A stretch of 64,000 bases of DNA from sequence record NC_052663.1; one strand, written 5' to 3'. Source of the stretch: Escherichia phage VEcB. Under the pieces are notes generated by a model. That model saw only the letters and a program-made list of their open reading frames with translations. It did not search any database and was not told the origin of the DNA. Position 1 is the stretch's first letter. Each line of letters begins with the position of its first letter. The position numbers and the translations under genes were made by a program. Shown here in pieces: positions 7,362-64,000 of this stretch.

Positions 7362-8084
7362 TTAAGCAATGATTGCTGCGATATTAGGTTTAACAAAGGT
7401 AGATGGTTTCATAATTTTACCTTTGTCATCAAAGAATACGTATACCTTTTGAACTTCGTTATATACAGCATGTACCCCAGTATAAGAACCTTCTGCACGA
7501 TCTTTGCTTCGCATCTCGATAGCATCGCACTCTTTTTCAAGAGCTTCAATAATATCCTTAGTTTCCCAAATAGCCAGGAGTTGCTTCTTGGTAGGATACT
7601 TGGACTCATTGCTATTCAACACTTCACGCATAACCTTCTTCTCGTTATAAACAGAACGCACCAAAGTATCTCGTGCCATACGGGTAAGTGTAAGAGACAT
7701 TAAGGCAAATTGCAAGTCATTTTCTACCATTTTATCAAATTCAATGATAACATCGTAAATGTTCTCTGCCAGAACATCTCCTGTCGGCATTTCCAGAGCT
7801 TTATCAACACCTTCTTTACCAAAGAACATAAATGCCAGATAGGATGCTACCACAAAAATATCTGCTGCTGCATCAAGTAATTCAACGTGATCATTTTCCT
7901 GTGCTGCTGCTTGGAACTCTTTAAGTTCTTCTCGTACAAAAGAAAGTTGAGCTTCAAACATCTCTTGAGTAAACTCTGGAGTTACTCCACCACGTGCCTT
8001 AGCATTCCAAGCAACAATTTGATCGGCAGCTTTGATAAAGAAGCTATTGTCCACTTTTACTTGTTTGAAAAAATTCTCGATCAT
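7362..8084 (-). CDS. hypothetical protein, possibly MazG-like all-alpha NTP pyrophosphohydrolase
   Basis: 240 aa; ELKEFQAA...ELLDAAADIFVV loosely resembles MazG/dUTPase-like EExxE...D motifs. Confidence 0.3.
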   Translation of the reverse strand: MIENFFKQVKVDNSFFIKAADQIVAWNAKARGGVTPEFTQEMFEAQLSFVREELKEFQAAAQENDHVELLDAAADIFVVASYLAFMFFGKEGVDKALEMPTGDVLAENIYDVIIEFDKMVENDLQFALMSLTLTRMARDTLVRSVYNEKKVMREVLNSNESKYPTKKQLLAIWETKDIIEALEKECDAIEMRSKDRAEGSYTGVHAVYNEVQKVYVFFDDKGKIMKPSTFVKPNIAAIIA

Positions 8085-10764: not shown

Positions 10765-11169
10765 TTATTGTAGCTTAAGTGAACTGCGAAGACGTTTCTC
10801 TTGCTGATCACGAATATGTTGTGGAACCTCATGAATTGAGTCGTTACCGTGCCTATTTTCAACAACTAAAGAGATAACTTGATAACCAAACTCTTCGGCA
10901 AGAGTAAAATAAGGTTTAAGTTCTTTCTCTGTGGTTGAAGTGTTAGAGACAATAATCTTTTTAATATTAGATGCCATAGCATCACGAACAATACTCTGAC
11001 ACCATGCGTGTGCTTTACCTACATTTTCTGGCTTCCAATCGTAAGCCCCGTTTTCTGTGTAATGATATTGATCTGCCTCACAGATAGGCCAATAACCTTC
11101 AGAAATAATTTCTGCTACTGTAGATTTACCTGCACCTGAAACACCACGTAAAATGATAAGTTGTTTCAT
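10765..11169 (-). CDS. P-loop kinase (polynucleotide-kinase-like)
   Basis: 134 aa; Walker A GVSGAGKST at N-terminus; adjacent to ligase-like and phosphoesterase genes. Confidence 0.55.
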   Translation of the reverse strand: MKQLIILRGVSGAGKSTVAEIISEGYWPICEADQYHYTENGAYDWKPENVGKAHAWCQSIVRDAMASNIKKIIVSNTSTTEKELKPYFTLAEEFGYQVISLVVENRHGNDSIHEVPQHIRDQQEKRLRSSLKLQ

Positions 11170-12102
11170 TTAGCCTCCAAAGAAGTTTTCTATTTCTTTA
11201 CGTCGCTCTTGTGGGTCTAGAGCAGCCCATTGAACCTTCGTAAAGTTATTTCGAAGCCATTCTAGCAAAGTATAATATTCTTCGTCAACAATTTGTTTAG
11301 CATTTTTTGGGTTGTCCCAAATCATATCCCACTTCTTATTGCCACCACGCATAAGGAACTTCTTAGCAAGATAGTATGGTGACTTAATCTTTAAGAGTAA
11401 GTTAAACGGATAGTTTGTTTCACGAACAACAAAGCCTTCGTGTCTACAATGTTTAGACATTTCAACAACATCTGAAAATTTAATCATCGGATAAACTTCA
11501 GGACGTTTAAATTTTGTAATAGATGCAATCCCATCAAGAACACCTTCAGGTAACATGAAACTTGTCCCATCCAGGTTTTGAATTCTTGCTCCAATTAAGT
11601 ACGCGCCTGGTTCTTCTTCGACAATATGTGGATCAGAAGGATCGCAGATTTCAAAAAGAAAAGTTGCTTTTGCACTTTCTGTCCACTTAATGAAATACTC
11701 TATGTCGTCACACTCGGAAACAATACGGTTCTTTGCCATAATTGCAAAATCTGATTCTAGGCTCCCTGTTGTTGATACAACAAGTTTCCCTTTGTACACA
11801 CCTACAGATGCCATAAAACCGTTTACTTTACGGACAGCATCTACAAGTTGGTCTGCTGGAAGATCTGTACCATTTTCAAAACGATTAAAGATTTTAGTAA
11901 AAGGCCAAATAACAACATTGTCTTCTGAGTCAACAACCAACCCACGACAATCTAGAAGGCGTTTGTCTACGTCCCACAAATTGTCCCAGAATACATTGTT
12001 TTTGTATTTAAGTACAGCAAGACCAGCATACTCTCCAGATTTAACTTCTTTTTTATGCACTAAACCTTTTGCAATCAGGTCATCACAATTGAACTTAGCC
12101 AC
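11170..12102 (-). CDS. RNA-ligase-like nucleotidyltransferase
   Basis: 310 aa; candidate motif I RKVNG, motif IV EGFVVRE, motif V LLLKIKSP. Confidence 0.5.
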   Translation of the reverse strand: MAKFNCDDLIAKGLVHKKEVKSGEYAGLAVLKYKNNVFWDNLWDVDKRLLDCRGLVVDSEDNVVIWPFTKIFNRFENGTDLPADQLVDAVRKVNGFMASVGVYKGKLVVSTTGSLESDFAIMAKNRIVSECDDIEYFIKWTESAKATFLFEICDPSDPHIVEEEPGAYLIGARIQNLDGTSFMLPEGVLDGIASITKFKRPEVYPMIKFSDVVEMSKHCRHEGFVVRETNYPFNLLLKIKSPYYLAKKFLMRGGNKKWDMIWDNPKNAKQIVDEEYYTLLEWLRNNFTKVQWAALDPQERRKEIENFFGG

Positions 12103-12103
12103 C

Positions 12104-12655
12104 TTAATCTCCTTTGATTATCTTATGATGATCTACAACAACAATATCACGCTTATCCATAATAGAGATGATTTCGTCAAAATGCAAGATTTTTCCGTGT
12201 ACGTCCCAACCAACATCCAACATTTTCCCATACAAATGATCAGGGAATGATCCGTGAGAGTGCCCGTGTAGCATGATTGATCCATGCCCTTGTTTATTCC
12301 AGGCAGCCATAGGGTAATGACTTAAGACGAAGAACAGTTTCTGATATTTCACTTCGTCATAATATACCACTTCACCATACTCTGCAAGCACTTTTCTGTG
12401 CTTACTGTAATCATGGTTCCCAACACAGTAAGTAATATCCCCTTGGAGACGGGAAGCAATCTTACGGGTATCTTCTTCAGTCCCGAAACAGAAGTCCCCA
12501 AGATGGTACATTTTTACTCCTGGTGTTGTGGCACATTTGTTCCATGCTTCGATCAGTGCTTCTGTCATATGCTCCATATCTTCCCACGGGCGATATTCAG
12601 GAGCAAACTCTCGAATACGTTTGTGCATAAAATGCAAATCACTTGTAATAAACAT
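12104..12655 (-). CDS. calcineurin-like metallophosphoesterase
   Basis: 183 aa; DLHF, HLGDF, VGNHDY, HGHSHG metallophosphatase motifs. Confidence 0.7.
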   Translation of the reverse strand: MFITSDLHFMHKRIREFAPEYRPWEDMEHMTEALIEAWNKCATTPGVKMYHLGDFCFGTEEDTRKIASRLQGDITYCVGNHDYSKHRKVLAEYGEVVYYDEVKYQKLFFVLSHYPMAAWNKQGHGSIMLHGHSHGSFPDHLYGKMLDVGWDVHGKILHFDEIISIMDKRDIVVVDHHKIIKGD

Positions 12656-61471: not shown

Positions 61472-62419
61472 TTAGAAACAGTGCAGGAAGTTTCGACCAT
61501 ACTGCAAACCAATAGGAGCAAATGGGATATCATCATCGAAATCTTGAACAACAGGTTCTGGTTCTTTCGGTGCTGGCTCTTTCTTCTCTACTTTTTTAGT
61601 TTCTTTCTTAACTTCTTGTACTGGGGTAGACATTCCACGGATAGCAGCAGCTACTTTATCAGACAAAGCAAGAACTTCACGAGCAGCTTCAATAATCTCT
61701 TCTGCCGTTACAGTTTTACCTGTATGATCACGACAAGCGTTAAGAATTGCGTGTCCAACTGAAGCACCAAGATCATAGTCAGTCACATCAACGCCACGAT
61801 CTTTAGCAATTTCTGCTTTCAGAGTAACAGTTGCAGATTGTACCACACCAGCCAAGTCGAAAGCATCACCTTTCACACCAGCACGTAGAAGCTCCAGAGC
61901 GCCATTTACAGCGTGTCCTGTTTCAATCCCTACAGTATCACGTTTTTTGTAGTTAGGTTTGCTACCTTCGTTATTAGATGGCTTATTTCCACCTTTTGAA
62001 GAAGATTGTGCTTGCTGAACACCTTCTGTTGAAAGAACAGTGATTTTACCTTTAGAGGAGTTGTAGTATGTTTTGCCATTCCATTCGGAAGGTTTAACAT
62101 CCATAGTTACTTCTACACCTTTTTCGATAGTAATCCACTTATCACCATCTTTAACTTGCAGGTTTTCATGTTCTGGGTGCAGTTTAACTTCACCTAGGCT
62201 AACCCAAACACCTTTATCATCAGCACCAGCACCTTTCTCTTTAATAAGCAGAGATGCTTTGTGAGTTGATTCAATTTTCTTATCTGGCTGACCTGCAACC
62301 TTAATATAAGAGACTTTCATTTCATCAAACTTATCCAGTTTGACATATTCAACGATACCTTCAGCCCAGAATGCTTCTTTTTTAGTACGACGGTCGATTT
62401 CAGAATTAATTACTGGCAT
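61472..62419 (-). CDS. putative ssDNA-binding protein with SSB-like acidic DFDDDIPF motif
   Basis: 315 aa; DFDDDIPF located 15 residues before the C-terminus. Confidence 0.4.
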   Translation of the reverse strand: MPVINSEIDRRTKKEAFWAEGIVEYVKLDKFDEMKVSYIKVAGQPDKKIESTHKASLLIKEKGAGADDKGVWVSLGEVKLHPEHENLQVKDGDKWITIEKGVEVTMDVKPSEWNGKTYYNSSKGKITVLSTEGVQQAQSSSKGGNKPSNNEGSKPNYKKRDTVGIETGHAVNGALELLRAGVKGDAFDLAGVVQSATVTLKAEIAKDRGVDVTDYDLGASVGHAILNACRDHTGKTVTAEEIIEAAREVLALSDKVAAAIRGMSTPVQEVKKETKKVEKKEPAPKEPEPVVQDFDDDIPFAPIGLQYGRNFLHCF

Positions 62420-62435
62420 AAATTCTCCTCTATAA

Positions 62436-62834
62436 TTACATTACTTTAACACAAAACTCTCGTAAAAGAGTAGCGTCAGTTTCTTCCAACAGGTATTTAC
62501 CAAGACCAATACCAAATCCTATTTCACCACTTTCGAAATGGAGGATTTGTATCTTTTCTCCACCAAGGTTAATTACTTTTGCTTTTCCAGGATTATCCAA
62601 AACATCTCGTATTGTATCCTGTAGTAACATAAGTTCACGTTTTGTGATAGTGGTTTCAGATATCTCTTTGTTTTCTACTCTCACTGTTAAACGATTGTAT
62701 CCACCAAAGAGACATAGTATTTGAATAAAAAAGGTATTATCTTGAGGTTCAACATCTTTTTTAGTTAGCTCAAGACGATTAGTTTCTCTACTATAGAACG
62801 TCTCGACTAAGATTTTAGAACGATTATCTGTCAT
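62436..62834 (-). CDS. hypothetical protein
   Basis: 132 aa; GAGGA RBS. Confidence 0.4.
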   Translation of the reverse strand: MTDNRSKILVETFYSRETNRLELTKKDVEPQDNTFFIQILCLFGGYNRLTVRVENKEISETTITKRELMLLQDTIRDVLDNPGKAKVINLGGEKIQILHFESGEIGFGIGLGKYLLEETDATLLREFCVKVM

Positions 62835-62877
62835 TCAAGTCCTCATAATAACACATAATTATAATGTTTGTCAACAC

Positions 62878-63471
62878 TTAAATTTTAAATTCTTCGTTGT
62901 TAAATGAATCCAGTGTACGTACTTCTGGTTCTTTGGGAATGAAAACGTCTTTTACAAAGCGGAACATAGGGAAACGTTCTGCCATTTTACGGACGTGTGC
63001 TTCTTTACCTGTGTATCGGTGATTAATAGTACAAATATTAGTTTTCAGTGCAAATTCAAAATCTGGATGATATACATAATTTTGACCATCCCAGTAACAC
63101 AAGCAAATAGCTACATCAAAGTTCCATACGATTTCACTGCGTACACCTTCTTCCATGATCATAAAGTTAAACTTAAGATCTTTATAGTATGCTTCAAATA
63201 CCCATTTCAAATGTGGTAGTTCGGCATAAGTGTGTTCTGTTTGCTTAGTAATTTGTTTAACATTACGTGCACCAACACCCAACATCAAAAATTTCTCTAC
63301 TAATACAAGTGTATTGTGGTTAGGCATACGCAAGTAAATGTCAATATCTTGCGCAGGTTTCTCTAATCGCCAGTCACGTACAGCGCCGCCAGCTACAATT
63401 GCAAACGGATCTACCAGTTGGCACATACGTAATACTTCTAAAGCTCGTACTTTTTGATCTTCAATATTCAT
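62878..63471 (-). CDS. minimal nucleotidyltransferase with CCA-adding-enzyme head-domain signature
   Basis: GGAVRDWRLEKPAQDIDIY matches GGxVRD...DxD; ATG at 63471 with AGGAG RBS preferred over GTG 63492. Confidence 0.5.
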   Translation of the reverse strand: MNIEDQKVRALEVLRMCQLVDPFAIVAGGAVRDWRLEKPAQDIDIYLRMPNHNTLVLVEKFLMLGVGARNVKQITKQTEHTYAELPHLKWVFEAYYKDLKFNFMIMEEGVRSEIVWNFDVAICLCYWDGQNYVYHPDFEFALKTNICTINHRYTGKEAHVRKMAERFPMFRFVKDVFIPKEPEVRTLDSFNNEEFKI

Positions 63472-63479
63472 ATTTTCTC

Positions 63480-63992
63480 CTATCGTGTCCACTCTTTGTG
63501 TTGTTCTACATGCTCAAGCATTTCATTATATAGTGCTTTAAGATGTGGAACAACTCTTTCATCTTCAGTTTCAAAGAATTTTGTAAGCTGTTCTGCCTTA
63601 GCCTTCAACCAACAAAGATGCGCTTCAATTTCAGTATTAAAACGTCCCAGTGTTATAACACGTCCATCACGTTGAATATGGGCTTTATACTTTTTACGAT
63701 CTTTTTCGTAACTACATCCTACCATAGTCCCATGAGATCTTTTACTTACTCTATAAGCTAAGAACTTGTTAAGATCTCCTGTTACTAAAAGACAGGTATC
63801 GGGAGAGTAAACTCTCCCTCCTATAATATCTTTATCAAGTTCTAAGTTTTCCCAGTTATCCCAAGTTTGCAACCAAGAGTAGAAATTGGAGAACAGTTTC
63901 CATTCTTCACAAACCGTCACCCCATTATAACAAGGATCACGTTCTTGTTGACAAGGGGAGTAACACCTCCCCAACATAGCCATCCATTTCAT
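63480..63992 (-). CDS. HNH-AP2 family homing endonuclease
   Basis: 170 aa; WMAMLGRCYSP and AP2-like GCSYEKDRKKYKAHIQRDGRVITLGRF; paralogous to 8297-8926. Confidence 0.55.
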   Translation of the reverse strand: MKWMAMLGRCYSPCQQERDPCYNGVTVCEEWKLFSNFYSWLQTWDNWENLELDKDIIGGRVYSPDTCLLVTGDLNKFLAYRVSKRSHGTMVGCSYEKDRKKYKAHIQRDGRVITLGRFNTEIEAHLCWLKAKAEQLTKFFETEDERVVPHLKALYNEMLEHVEQHKEWTR

Positions 63993-64000
63993 ATAATGCG

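Follow-up and report, generated by a model that had tools for sequence, protein, structure and literature searches.

[quoted passage not shown] The initial annotation read this protein primarily as a possible repair enzyme for tRNA 3' ends. The question raised by the locus is whether a head domain of this kind, encoded by a lytic-type phage, is a CCA-adding enzyme or a nucleotidyltransferase with some other role. The features discussed below are the following.

63477..63481, minus strand: ribosome-binding site AGGAG, read as the reverse complement of ctcct, 5 nt 5' of the ATG.
62878..63471, minus strand: coding sequence of a 197-aa stand-alone nucleotidyltransferase, identical to Escherichia phage VEcB YP_009987363.1 and an orthologue of phi92 gp158.
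63334..63390, minus strand: motif A, GGAVRDWRLEKPAQDIDIY, residues 28-46, with the glycine pair opening helix 2 and the putative metal-binding residues D42 and D44 on strand 2.
63103..63126, minus strand: counterpart of motif B, WNFDVAIC, residues 116-123, placed by greedy hhalign against E. coli Cca/PcnB with low confidence here.
62971..63015, minus strand: C-terminal helix, YTGKEAHVRKMAERF, residues 153-167, delimited from the model helix (158-166), column statistics and a low-confidence hhalign to Cca 128-141.

The reading frame extends on the minus strand from the ATG at 63471 to the stop codon at 62878-62880, and the protein of roughly 200 residues with a GGxVRD signature claimed for this position was confirmed. 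The program-made list of open reading frames started the gene at GTG 63492 (204 aa); the ATG was preferred because homologue alignments and RefSeq both back it. The HNH gene upstream ends in a TAG stop that overlaps the ribosome-binding site, and the gene order at the locus is primase-helicase, DNA polymerase A, HNH and the nucleotidyltransferase gene. The protein has already been deposited under the name "nucleotidyltransferase". It is mildly acidic (pI 6.3), which gives no positive pointer to an acceptor.

Structure was predicted with AlphaFold using an alignment of 33 diverse homologues (pLDDT 86.4, pTM 0.82), an earlier model from a 3-sequence alignment (pLDDT 62) having been discarded as too poor. 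The model has the head-domain fold, and its ordered part stops at about residue 175. The comparison with CCA-adding head domains that the initial annotation had proposed came out clearly: all 41 Foldseek matches in the PDB with E<=1e-3 were class II enzymes. The protein is a nucleotidyltransferase of the Pol-beta superfamily, and the claimed tie to class II heads stands for motif A and for the fold. Pfam PolyA_pol (PF01743) matched at E=5.5e-4 with 20.7 bits, below its gathering score of 23 bits, and only over profile positions 3-67 of 126, about half of the head profile; 16 of the 106 family members matched it at E<=0.01. The 106-sequence family profile reached CCA-adding enzymes in the PDB at E=0.002 through motif A only, and its hhalign comparison with E. 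coli Cca and PcnB gave 74%, E=2.8e-5 over 52 columns. With the single sequence, phmmer found nothing significant among PDB sequences, NCBIfam gave only 14.9 bits to the CCA enzyme model (cut-off 290), and PADLOC returned only LmuC at E=0.043, which was taken as noise. The class II resemblance exceeds chance. At 197 aa, compared with the 412 aa of E. coli Cca, the protein is about half the class II length, as had been noted, and the neck, body and tail used for tRNA binding, which bring class II enzymes to a total of about 370-470 aa, are absent from its sequence and model. The model is best explained as a class II head with one short neck-like helical hairpin.

Motif A is the best preserved part of the protein. 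GGAVRD (residues 28-33) is followed by DID (residues 42-44), and in alignments the stretch is matched by GGAVRDLLLGK..D.D in CCA-adding enzymes and by AGGAITSLF..NDVDIY in Gad2, an anti-Gabija protein. G28, G29, W34, D42 and D44 are invariant in all 106 family members, R32 is kept in 104 and D33 in 97. The columns for motifs B and D come from hhalign in local greedy mode, with E. coli Cca/PcnB as the target of the family profile, and are of low confidence. In this alignment E. coli Cca has KRRDLTIN; N117 and F118 stand where its two arginines are, and D119 is kept. In the family as a whole F or M occupies position 118 (106/106), D occupies position 119 in only 22/106 and C or S position 123 in 103/106. 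The corresponding Gad2 block is FDFTVC. Regular-expression searches of the whole 197-aa protein found neither RRD (motif B) nor ED..R (motif D), and the motif D positions correspond, again with low confidence, to G155-K156-x-x-H159. In class II enzymes RRD senses the ribose 2'-OH, and EDxxR serves as an amino-acid template by which CTP and ATP are chosen and C-C-A is spelled; both motifs appear from the sequence to have been lost. The D and R of EDxxR were irreplaceable in selection experiments with the human enzyme (PMC11784652). Conserved positions in the C-terminal helix region are Y153, H/Y159, K162, K/R166 and F167, and residues 153-167 likely correspond to the first neck helix in class II enzymes, without its EDxxR template. 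Because RRD, EDxxR and the body and tail appear lost, the protein would not be a CCA-adding enzyme in the strict sense, and no templated order of addition would be expected. A third catalytic carboxylate is not a family-wide property: 25/106 members have no acidic residue at 93, 119 or 121, and the strand 5 position at which it might be expected is Q or N in 102/106. The VEcB protein has both E93 and D119.

A word-index search with the single protein returned only 2 proteins, and the family was recovered by an exhaustive HMMER search, which gave 995 clusters at 50% identity. Nearly all of the best 150 matches are stand-alone proteins of 175-220 aa, and the 10 longer members screened for domain fusions carried no additional Pfam domains. 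Identity among the 106 family sequences is as low as 21-30%. In 185,579 species genomes 12 loci were found, all in metagenome bins, and those examined sit on phage-like contigs; the family was found only in phages and on phage-like contigs. The VEcB protein is an ordinary member of this known phage family, matching phrog_1614 ('nucleotidyltransferase') at E=2.3e-34 over residues 7-193 and, as second match, phrog_10174 at E=2e-26.

The best profile relative of the family is Gad2. Phage SPbetaL7 needs Gad2 to resist Gabija, and Gad2 is a predicted nucleotidyltransferase (bioRxiv 10.1101/2023.05.01.538930) whose mode of action was still unexplained by February 2026 (PMC12904381). The family profile aligned to 15 Gad2 homologues by hhalign with 96.7% probability and E=3.8e-10, and to the two experimentally used proteins, from SPbetaL7 and B. 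laterosporus, with 94% and E=1.3e-7 over 152 columns; the match to E. coli Cca and PcnB was weaker than that to Gad2. A newer Pfam release lists a precomputed match of PF26128 ('Gad2') on the exact VEcB protein, unmarked and hence at E<=1e-5, and on about half of the diverse homologues as well. The local Pfam copy gave no PF26128 match even at E<=10, so that the model is probably missing from it. Direct comparison shows how distant the relation is: BLASTP aligned no more than 25 residues of the VEcB protein with Gad2, NCBIfam gave it no Gad2-type match, and the RDW motif (GGA[PVA]RDW) occurs in none of the sequences given as text in the published Gad2 homologue tables. A tblastn search with the Gad2 N-terminal domain found other loci, not the VEcB gene, among the best 40 of 202 records. 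The family appears to be a remote homologue of Gad2's N-terminal nucleotidyltransferase domain. Short proteins consisting of that N-terminal domain only exist elsewhere, for example in Aeromonas phage PhAER-3. This phage has one gene of each family, a short RDW-type and a Gad2-type, which suggests that the two have non-redundant functions.

Gene context was sampled at 83 loci, which were reduced to 45 groups at <60% identity, and RNA-repair genes were sought within 10 kb on either side. A primase-helicase gene is nearby in 31/45 groups, at a median of 1.8 kb upstream on the same strand. DNA polymerase A is nearby in 22/45, and another polymerase-sized protein, with only a weak exonuclease-domain Pfam match, in 10/45. 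HNH genes lie near the homologues in 19/45 groups, a 5'-3' exonuclease in 15/45, ThyX in 8/45 and DNA ligase in 6/45. The placement beside primase-helicase or polymerase is kept despite a protein identity of only 25-35% between groups. Homologues of the Rnl1-type ligase and of the kinase were each found within 10 kb in 0/45 groups. The initial annotation had placed the gene alongside ligase, kinase and phosphatase genes. These do occur in the same window, at 10765-12655 (Rnl1-type ligase, AAA_33 kinase, metallophosphoesterase), but the distance is about 50 kb, and the tRNA array and the entire structural module lie between. The nucleotidyltransferase gene sits in the replication module, not in an RNA-repair cassette. 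Its flanking 132-aa and 315-aa genes have no Pfam match and were rejected as obligate partners, as they co-occur with it only in Stephanstirmvirinae-like phages (4/45 groups). In those phages the by-organism record counts of the nucleotidyltransferase gene equal those of its neighbour (105 Escherichia, 8 Klebsiella), which suggests a lineage core gene rather than an anti-defence gene of fast turnover. Positional orthology with the Gad2-like genes of Vequintavirinae was considered and rejected; those genes follow the tRNA array and precede Rz and the terminase.

Taken together, the VEcB protein is probably a Gad2-related, head-only nucleotidyltransferase and not a CCA-adding enzyme. We infer that it is catalytically competent and non-templated. 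The gene would be co-transcribed with the primase-helicase, DNA polymerase A and HNH genes of the replication module. In the proposed mechanism NTP and Mg2+ would be bound by the GG turn that opens helix 2 together with D42 and D44 of DxD, E93, N102 and D119 on neighbouring elements would assist catalysis, and the nucleotidyl group would be passed to what is presumably a hydroxyl acceptor. By analogy with Gad2, the protein would most likely serve the phage in an accessory or counter-defence capacity, either transferring nucleotidyl groups to a target other than tRNA or producing a small nucleotide; counter-defence itself is put forward tentatively. The fallback offered by the initial annotation, some other minimal nucleotidyltransferase with a signalling or toxin-related role, came closer to the evidence than its primary reading, in that the Gad2 domain is the best profile relative and related small phage enzymes are toxic when over-expressed. 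[quoted passage not shown] Several points weigh against the Gad2-related reading. The sequence link to Gad2 is remote by BLASTP, NCBIfam and the RDW motif, the C-terminal part of Gad2 is missing, the gene contexts differ, PhAER-3 carries both families, the record counts are those of a core gene, and the third carboxylate varies within the family.

The reading first favoured, repair or tailing of the 3' ends of tRNA or other RNA, is now unlikely. Such an enzyme would add A, CA, CCA or untemplated tails, counter toxins that act on acceptor ends, and complement the phage RNA ligase, kinase, phosphoesterase and 15 tRNAs, all of which the same genome encodes. It is consistent with a motif A of the GGxVRD type, and the nearest solved structures are all tRNA nucleotidyltransferases or poly(A) polymerase. 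A distant homologue, L007, has an RNA ligase, an RlaP nucleotidyltransferase and a kinase at distances of about 3-6 kb, and class II enzymes truncated at the C-terminus keep some catalytic activity in vitro. The VEcB protein, however, has no RRD, no EDxxR and no neck, body or tail, and it is slightly acidic; CCA is encoded in 15/15 of the phage tRNA genes, the host possesses its own Cca, and the repair cassette is 50 kb off, with no homologue of its Rnl1-type ligase or its kinase within 10 kb in any of the 45 groups. Also unlikely, if a little less so, is a replication-associated enzyme that would work with the primase-helicase and DNA polymerase A and extend the 3' ends of DNA or primers without a template, much as a terminal transferase does, so as to protect genome ends, aid priming or process replication intermediates. 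The conserved placement at 25-35% identity (31/45 and 22/45 groups), the same order around the small nucleotidyltransferases of T7-like phages (PMC7693777) and the record counts equal to the neighbour gene's across Stephanstirmvirinae-like phages argue for it, and loss of RRD could, we infer, relax discrimination between NTP and dNTP. Against this, the model has no evident DNA-binding thumb or 8-kDa-type domain, and the gene is missing from most phages that have primases and polymerases of these types; it was reported in about 100 of >540 Autographiviridae (PMC7693777). Synteny alone is weak evidence here because the interval between primase and polymerase is a known site of accessory and homing-endonuclease genes (HNH in 19/45 groups).

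Less probable again is a synthase of small nucleotides, whose product, an oligonucleotide (cyclic or linear) or a metabolite carrying a nucleotidyl group, would serve as decoy or competitor in host immune signalling, no polynucleotide acceptor being involved. The cyclic dinucleotides of MNT-like phage enzymes offer a precedent (bioRxiv 10.1101/2022.06.09.495361), and the VEcB protein is small, acidic and without an obvious nucleic-acid-binding module; but the GS-x-AY[GAN]T-x4-SDxD signature of those enzymes is absent, and the structure is far closer to class II heads than to CD-NTases or RelA/SpoT. That the protein is a catalytically dead binding protein, a pseudo-enzyme or sponge keeping the fold, is very improbable. 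The third carboxylate missing in 25/106 members and the Q/N on strand 5 in 102/106 would fit it, but GG and DxD invariant in 106/106 sequences with identities as low as 21-30% are hard to explain without catalysis, and the VEcB protein retains E93 and D119. A bolder reading, which we consider doubtful, is that the short RDW-type enzymes form a distinct phage-restricted class that has stood between primase-helicase and DNA polymerase since deep phage evolution and performs a reaction undescribed for class II-type heads. It might, for example, add untemplated nucleotides to DNA or primer ends and so blind end-sensing defences (Gabija, RecBCD-linked), or make a nucleotide product that inhibits such defences; if this were true, the working of the family would also reveal how Gad2 acts.

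For the preferred reading, a Gad2-related head-only enzyme, the consequences concern annotation as well as function. Few enzymes are annotated more often in virulent phage genomes than small nucleotidyltransferases resembling CCA enzymes; the VEcB family alone has about a thousand 50%-identity clusters, and there are sister families in T7-like phages. The routine label 'tRNA nucleotidyltransferase' is unsafe for proteins of the VEcB type, and 'Gad2-like / class II-type nucleotidyltransferase head domain protein, function unknown' is advised in place of 'CCA-adding enzyme'. Should the protein have anti-Gabija activity, Gad2-type counter-defence would extend to Gram-negative lytic phages and a minimal enzyme would be at hand for the Gad2 mechanism; should it have none, a conserved, unexplained member of the replication module would remain.

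Among known systems, the class II enzymes and poly(A) polymerase I (3aql, 1miv, 3h37, 4wby, 1ou5) are twice as long as the VEcB protein and have the body and tail that it lacks. It also differs from them in having N-F-D in place of the RRD of motif B, in the absence of EDxxR and in a gene unlinked to RNA-repair genes. The Streptococcus pneumoniae protein NP_344798.1 (PDB 2LA3), labelled by its depositors 'a CCA-adding enzyme head domain', is of similar size (191 aa), but it is a cellular, bacterial protein with 9% identity to the VEcB protein, and the family sequence profile misses it. Two toxin-related groups and RlaP were also compared. No Pfam match to RlaP (PF10127) was found for the VEcB protein, which also lacks the adjacency to an RNA ligase, and neither a profile nor a close structural match with a paired antitoxin was found for the MenT and AbiEii (DUF1814) toxins.

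MNT-like phage nucleotidyltransferases, which make 3'3'-cGAMP and c-di-AMP that inhibit TIR-STING, are defined by the signature GS-x-AY[GAN]T-x4-SDxD, and the same paper reported Atd1 from phi92-like phages (bioRxiv 10.1101/2022.06.09.495361). Membership of the VEcB protein in this group was rejected, the signature being absent from it by regular expression, and a relaxed form was absent from all six frames of the window. CD-NTases and RelA/SpoT resemble the VEcB model far less than class II heads do.

Closer in form are the small enzymes of T7-like and KP34-like podophages (Klebsiella fHe-Kpn01 Gp22, Pectobacterium PP47 gp28, Pseudomonas Emajogi gp22, LKD16 and phiNV3), which at 167-187 aa share the CCA-enzyme-like head fold. 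In T7-like phages their genes are placed between those for primase-helicase and DNA polymerase, beside an anti-toxin-antitoxin gene (PMC7693777), and Foldseek matched the VEcB model to their predicted structures at E about 1e-7 to 3.5e-6. They are nevertheless only 14-19% identical to the VEcB protein, form separate sequence families and are not among the top matches of the family profile. Other authors have labelled some of them 'Gad2 family' (10.64898/2026.09.15.751885). Over-expression proved toxic for fHe-Kpn01 Gp22 (PMC7291057) and Emajogi gp22 (10.64898/2026.09.15.751885), a result that concerns these two proteins, not the VEcB protein.

Gad2 itself, from Bacillus phage SPbetaL7 and a Brevibacillus laterosporus prophage, is 394-400 aa long; only its residues ~16-172 have a VEcB counterpart, and its C-terminal ~230 residues have none. 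It has ITS where the VEcB family has the class II-like RDW. Active-site mutants of Gad2 reportedly lost function in the published study. Its genes form a dedicated anti-Gabija locus in temperate SPbeta-like phages and its homologues were found in prophages, whereas the VEcB gene lies in a replication module and its family was found only on lytic-phage-like contigs. Both proteins are phage-encoded, and they share AGGA, D-[IV]-D-[IV]-Y, the Q/N on strand 5, F-D-x-[TA]-[VI]-C and H-x-D-F.

The nucleotidyltransferase gene of Escherichia phage VEcB lies in a region that is 97–99% identical over 2 kb to phi92-like E. coli phages (Justusliebigvirus, Stephanstirmvirinae). The following features were identified in and around it.

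Features of the nucleotidyltransferase locus
63480-64000, minus strand: HNH homing-endonuclease gene, running past the window end (phrog_953, E=1.4e-66)
63477-63481, minus strand: AGGAG preceding the nucleotidyltransferase ATG and overlapping the TAG stop of the HNH gene
62878-63471, minus strand: nucleotidyltransferase ORF, 197 aa (ATG at 63471, stop at 62878-62880)
63334-63390: GGAVRDWRLEKPAQDIDIY, residues 28-46 of the nucleotidyltransferase
62845-62874, minus strand: near-consensus sigma-70-type promoter (TTGACA, 18 nt, TATTAT, extended-10 TG)
62436-62834, minus strand: 132-aa ORF immediately downstream (phrog_16560)
61472-62419, minus strand: 315-aa ORF, named single-stranded DNA-binding protein in phage ESCO9
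61430-61449 and 60259-60284: terminator-like hairpins downstream of the promoter

The ORF encodes the peptide quoted in the initial annotation, and the nucleotidyltransferase feature recognized there is real. As the exact protein was already public (YP_009987363.1, ‘nucleotidyltransferase’, Escherichia phage VEcB), the observation was confirmed and coincides with an existing database annotation. The phi92 orthologue, gp158, and about 90 near-identical records carry varying names (‘hypothetical protein’, ‘nucleotidyltransferase’, ‘putative tRNA nucleotidyl transferase/poly(A) polymerase’). Under the name ‘Campylobacter phage’, four or five records (MG065645.1 and relatives; stated host C. jejuni) are 98–100% identical to E. 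coli Justusliebigvirus genes and are probably contaminant or mislabelled deposits.

The protein was assigned to phrog_1614 (‘nucleotidyltransferase’, E=2.3e-34). In an exhaustive HMMER search covering 1.84 billion cluster representatives, 995 relatives passed E≤1e-3, 278 of them also E≤1e-10; among the best 150 of the 995, nearly all were 175–220 aa long and matched end to end, so that they constitute a stand-alone protein family, referred to here as the RDW family after its motif GGA[PVA]RDW. Resemblance to CCA-adding enzymes was weak in sequence comparisons and limited to motif A. The Pfam PolyA_pol head was matched at E=5.5e-4 over profile positions 3-67 of 126 only, with 20.7 bits, short of the gathering score of 23 bits. 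A 106-member family profile matched PDB entries for CCA-adding enzymes across some 40 residues (E=0.002), and E. coli Cca and PcnB by hhalign with 74% probability (E=2.8e-5, 52 columns). An AlphaFold2 model built from a 33-sequence alignment (pLDDT 86.4, pTM 0.82; disorder only in the last ~17 residues) was compared with known structures, and here the resemblance of the predicted fold is clear. All 41 Foldseek matches in the PDB with E≤1e-3 were class II enzymes, the structural relatives that the initial annotation had correctly named, and structure comparison gave A-, CC- and CCA-adding enzymes in the order 4wby (11.4), 3h37 (10.9), 1miv (10.8), 3wfo (10.1), 9kma (9.7) and 1ou5 (9.5). The model firmly predicts a head-only nucleotidyltransferase fold of class II type.

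What defines a class II enzyme is a set of motifs, A to E, in its N-terminal catalytic core; among these, motif D (EDxxR) selects CTP and ATP as an amino-acid template, the D and R of this motif being irreplaceable in selection experiments (PMC11784652). Across the aligned family the GG...DxD catalytic signature is firmly invariant: G28, G29, W34, D42 and D44 were found in 106/106 members, with R32, D33, A27, A30, Y82 and K162 nearly invariant and position 102 being Q or N in 102. String searches of the 197-aa protein for RRD and ED..R returned nothing. When the family profile was aligned greedily with E. coli Cca by hhalign, the alignment extended over 152 columns and, in columns of low confidence, placed N117-F118-D119 opposite R90-R91-D92 (motif B) and G155-K156-x-x-H159 opposite E130-D131-x-x-R134 (motif D); family members have F or M at position 118 without exception, D at 119 in only 22 of 106, and H or Y at 159. 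The VEcB protein has both E93 and D119; an acidic residue at 93, 119 or 121 is missing in 25 of the 106 members, and a canonical third carboxylate is not conserved family-wide. Whereas E. coli Cca has 412 aa, the phage protein ends after one helical hairpin past the head, and so is without the neck, body and tail that hold tRNA. That the protein lacks the motifs and domains by which CCA-adding enzymes gain their specificity for tRNA and for C-C-A is firmly established.

Neighbourhoods were sampled from 80 IMG/VR loci fetched by the family motif and five more. ORFs were called and clustered, giving 83 gene-bearing loci in 45 groups at <60% nucleotidyltransferase identity; the commonest neighbour clusters were annotated with Pfam and counted within ±10 kb. 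A T7 gp4-like primase-helicase was present on the same strand in 31 of the 45 groups, at a median distance of 1.8 kb upstream, DNA polymerase A in 22, a 5'-3' exonuclease in 15, a second polymerase-sized protein with only a weak exonuclease-domain match in Pfam in 10, ThyX and an SSB-like protein in 8 each, and an ATP-dependent DNA ligase in 6. Conserved placement of the family in the replication module is firmly shown. HNH-AP2 endonucleases were counted in 19 groups, and HNH or HNH-AP2 genes in 12–19, making the interval a frequent landing site. Related small nucleotidyltransferases of T7-like phages likewise lie between primase-helicase and DNA polymerase, beside a toxin-antitoxin-system inhibitor and with a patchy distribution (PMC7693777). 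Only 12 family loci, all in metagenome bins, were found on scanning one prokaryotic genome per species (n=185,579); those examined were on phage-like contigs, so the family looks confined to virulent phages.

In VEcB the order is primase-helicase, 131-aa ORF, DNA polymerase A, HNH gene, nucleotidyltransferase, 132-aa ORF, 315-aa SSB-like ORF, N6/N4 DNA methyltransferase and 143-aa ORF, followed by tail-fibre genes on the opposite strand. The HNH gene thus separates the polymerase from the nucleotidyltransferase, whose ribosome-binding site its stop overlaps. The promoter occupies the 43 nt that separate the nucleotidyltransferase stop from the 132-aa gene, so the 132-aa and 315-aa genes may have their own predicted promoter. 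Neither of the two ORFs had a Pfam match. The 132-aa gene has 132 records among Stephanstirmvirinae-like phages, with by-organism counts equal to those of the nucleotidyltransferase (105 Escherichia, 8 Klebsiella), which suggests that the latter is a stable gene of this lineage; present in only 4 of the 45 wider groups, the 132-aa gene could encode a lineage-specific partner. The 315-aa ORF contains DFDDDIPF 18 residues short of its C-terminus, not at the very end, a string identical to the protein-recruiting C-terminal tip of E. coli SSB. The upstream DNA polymerase A is 1182 aa in one contig (L127, 2827-6375) and 859 aa in another, otherwise collinear one (L128, 3789-6368), a difference pointing to an inserted sequence (intein or fused mobile element) in part of the isolates.

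Genes for RNA repair, tRNAs and nucleotide metabolism elsewhere in the window were as follows.

RNA-repair, tRNA and nucleotide-metabolism genes
7362-8084, minus strand: MazG-like nucleotide pyrophosphohydrolase (annotation of phage alia; PMC11724313)
10765-11169, minus strand: AAA_33 P-loop kinase, 134 aa
11170-12102, minus strand: Rnl1-type RNA ligase, 310 aa (PF09511)
12104-12655, minus strand: calcineurin-like metallophosphoesterase, 183 aa
15548-18246, plus strand: putative NAD-salvage pair (annotation of phage alia; PMC11724313)
18994-22104, plus strand: 15 tRNA genes (Met x2, Leu x2, Ser x2, Lys, Tyr, Asn, Thr, Gly, Gln, Pro, Phe, Ile)

A compact cassette (10765-12655, minus strand) holds the ligase, kinase and phosphatase cited in the initial annotation; it lies 50 kb from the nucleotidyltransferase and functionally resembles the T4 Pnkp and Rnl1 pair, but split over three genes. 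Homologues of the phage's own ligase and kinase were found within ±10 kb in none of the 45 groups; by Pfam annotation, one metagenomic phage-like contig is an exception, where a ligase from another family lies ~3–6 kb upstream together with an RlaP nucleotidyltransferase and a kinase. All 15 phage tRNA genes encode the 3' CCA. The NAD-salvage pair just upstream of the array, annotated as ribose-phosphate pyrophosphokinase and nicotinamide phosphoribosyltransferase after phage alia, resembles the NARP2 counter-defence pathway, and for Justusliebigvirus AntiDefenseFinder lists Atd1, a MazG-like anti-TIR protein (PMC11724313).

Precomputed Pfam annotation (E≤1e-5 where unmarked) lists PF26128 ‘Gad2’ for the exact protein and about half of its diverse relatives; a local Pfam copy, from which the model is probably absent, gave no PF26128 match even at E≤10. 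[quoted passage not shown] Using Gad2 sequences from the supplement of that paper, BLASTP aligned only the 25-residue motif A, and the family profile matched two experimentally used Gad2 proteins by hhalign at 94% (E=1.3e-7, 152 columns, Gad2 residues 16-172) and 15 Gad2 homologues at 96.7% (E=3.8e-10). By profile the family is thus closer to the catalytic domain of Gad2 than to the CCA/PAP enzymes of cells, and membership of the VEcB protein in a big phage family related to that domain is firmly shown.

The protein is inferred to be a nucleotidyltransferase that is catalytically competent and non-templated, with an acceptor not set by its known features. An accessory or counter-defence role is tentatively favoured, because the one relative studied by experiment acts against a defence system and because the primase-polymerase interval is a known accessory slot. 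Over-expression of related small nucleotidyltransferases (PMC7291057; 10.64898/2026.09.15.751885) and of SPbetaL7 Gad2 (bioRxiv 10.1101/2023.05.01.538930) is toxic, suggesting action on host targets and likewise favouring counter-defence. Against this role, the gene appears to be lineage core, its genomic context is unlike that of Gad2, and the mechanism of Gad2 itself was given as unknown in February 2026 (PMC12904381).

DNA or primer end modification during replication, for a gene lodged in the replication module, is considered unlikely. The initial annotation had proposed tRNA 3'-end repair, and the class II fold is shared with enzymes of that activity; neither motif content, with RRD and ED..R absent, nor synteny, with the cassette 50 kb away, lends it support, and RNA or tRNA 3'-end tailing or repair is distinctly unlikely. 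Synthesis of a small nucleotide product is improbable, and a pseudo-enzyme, set against the invariant catalytic signature, highly improbable.

A tblastn search with the Gad2 N-terminal domain matched 202 phage records; the matches listed, 40 of the 202, lay at other loci than this gene.

Gad2-related genes in other phages
L110, 4929-5456: Aeromonas phage PhAER-3, short 175-aa Gad2-N-terminal-like protein
L111, 4998-5615: PhAER-3, RDW-family member, adjoining nrdB
L113, 6001-7458: Klebsiella phage KpS8 (Vequintavirinae), Gad2-like
L114, 5974-7329: Escherichia phage Av-05 (Vequintavirinae), Gad2-like

The long (451–485 aa) Vequintavirinae proteins are encoded directly after the tRNA array, before the Rz/terminase genes; their two-piece tblastn match suggests an insertion within the putative nucleotidyltransferase domain. 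PhAER-3 has both types, one gene of either, which shows the Gad2-like and RDW families to be paralogous, probably without redundancy. The RDW family is a separate clade: GGA[PVA]RDW was found in none of the published Gad2 homologues (supplement text). The VEcB gene belongs to an already catalogued, biochemically uncharacterised family; its value lies in a mis-annotation that can be corrected and in the minimal model, from a phage of Gram-negative bacteria, that it offers for the unsolved Gad2-type enzymes. Past motif A, both families have [LV]-Q/N-[LFM]-[IM] (strand 5), F-D-x-[TA]-[VI]-C and H-x-D-F in common; the C-terminal ~230 residues of Gad2 are absent from the RDW family, in which the class II-like RDW is retained at the place of ITS in Gad2.
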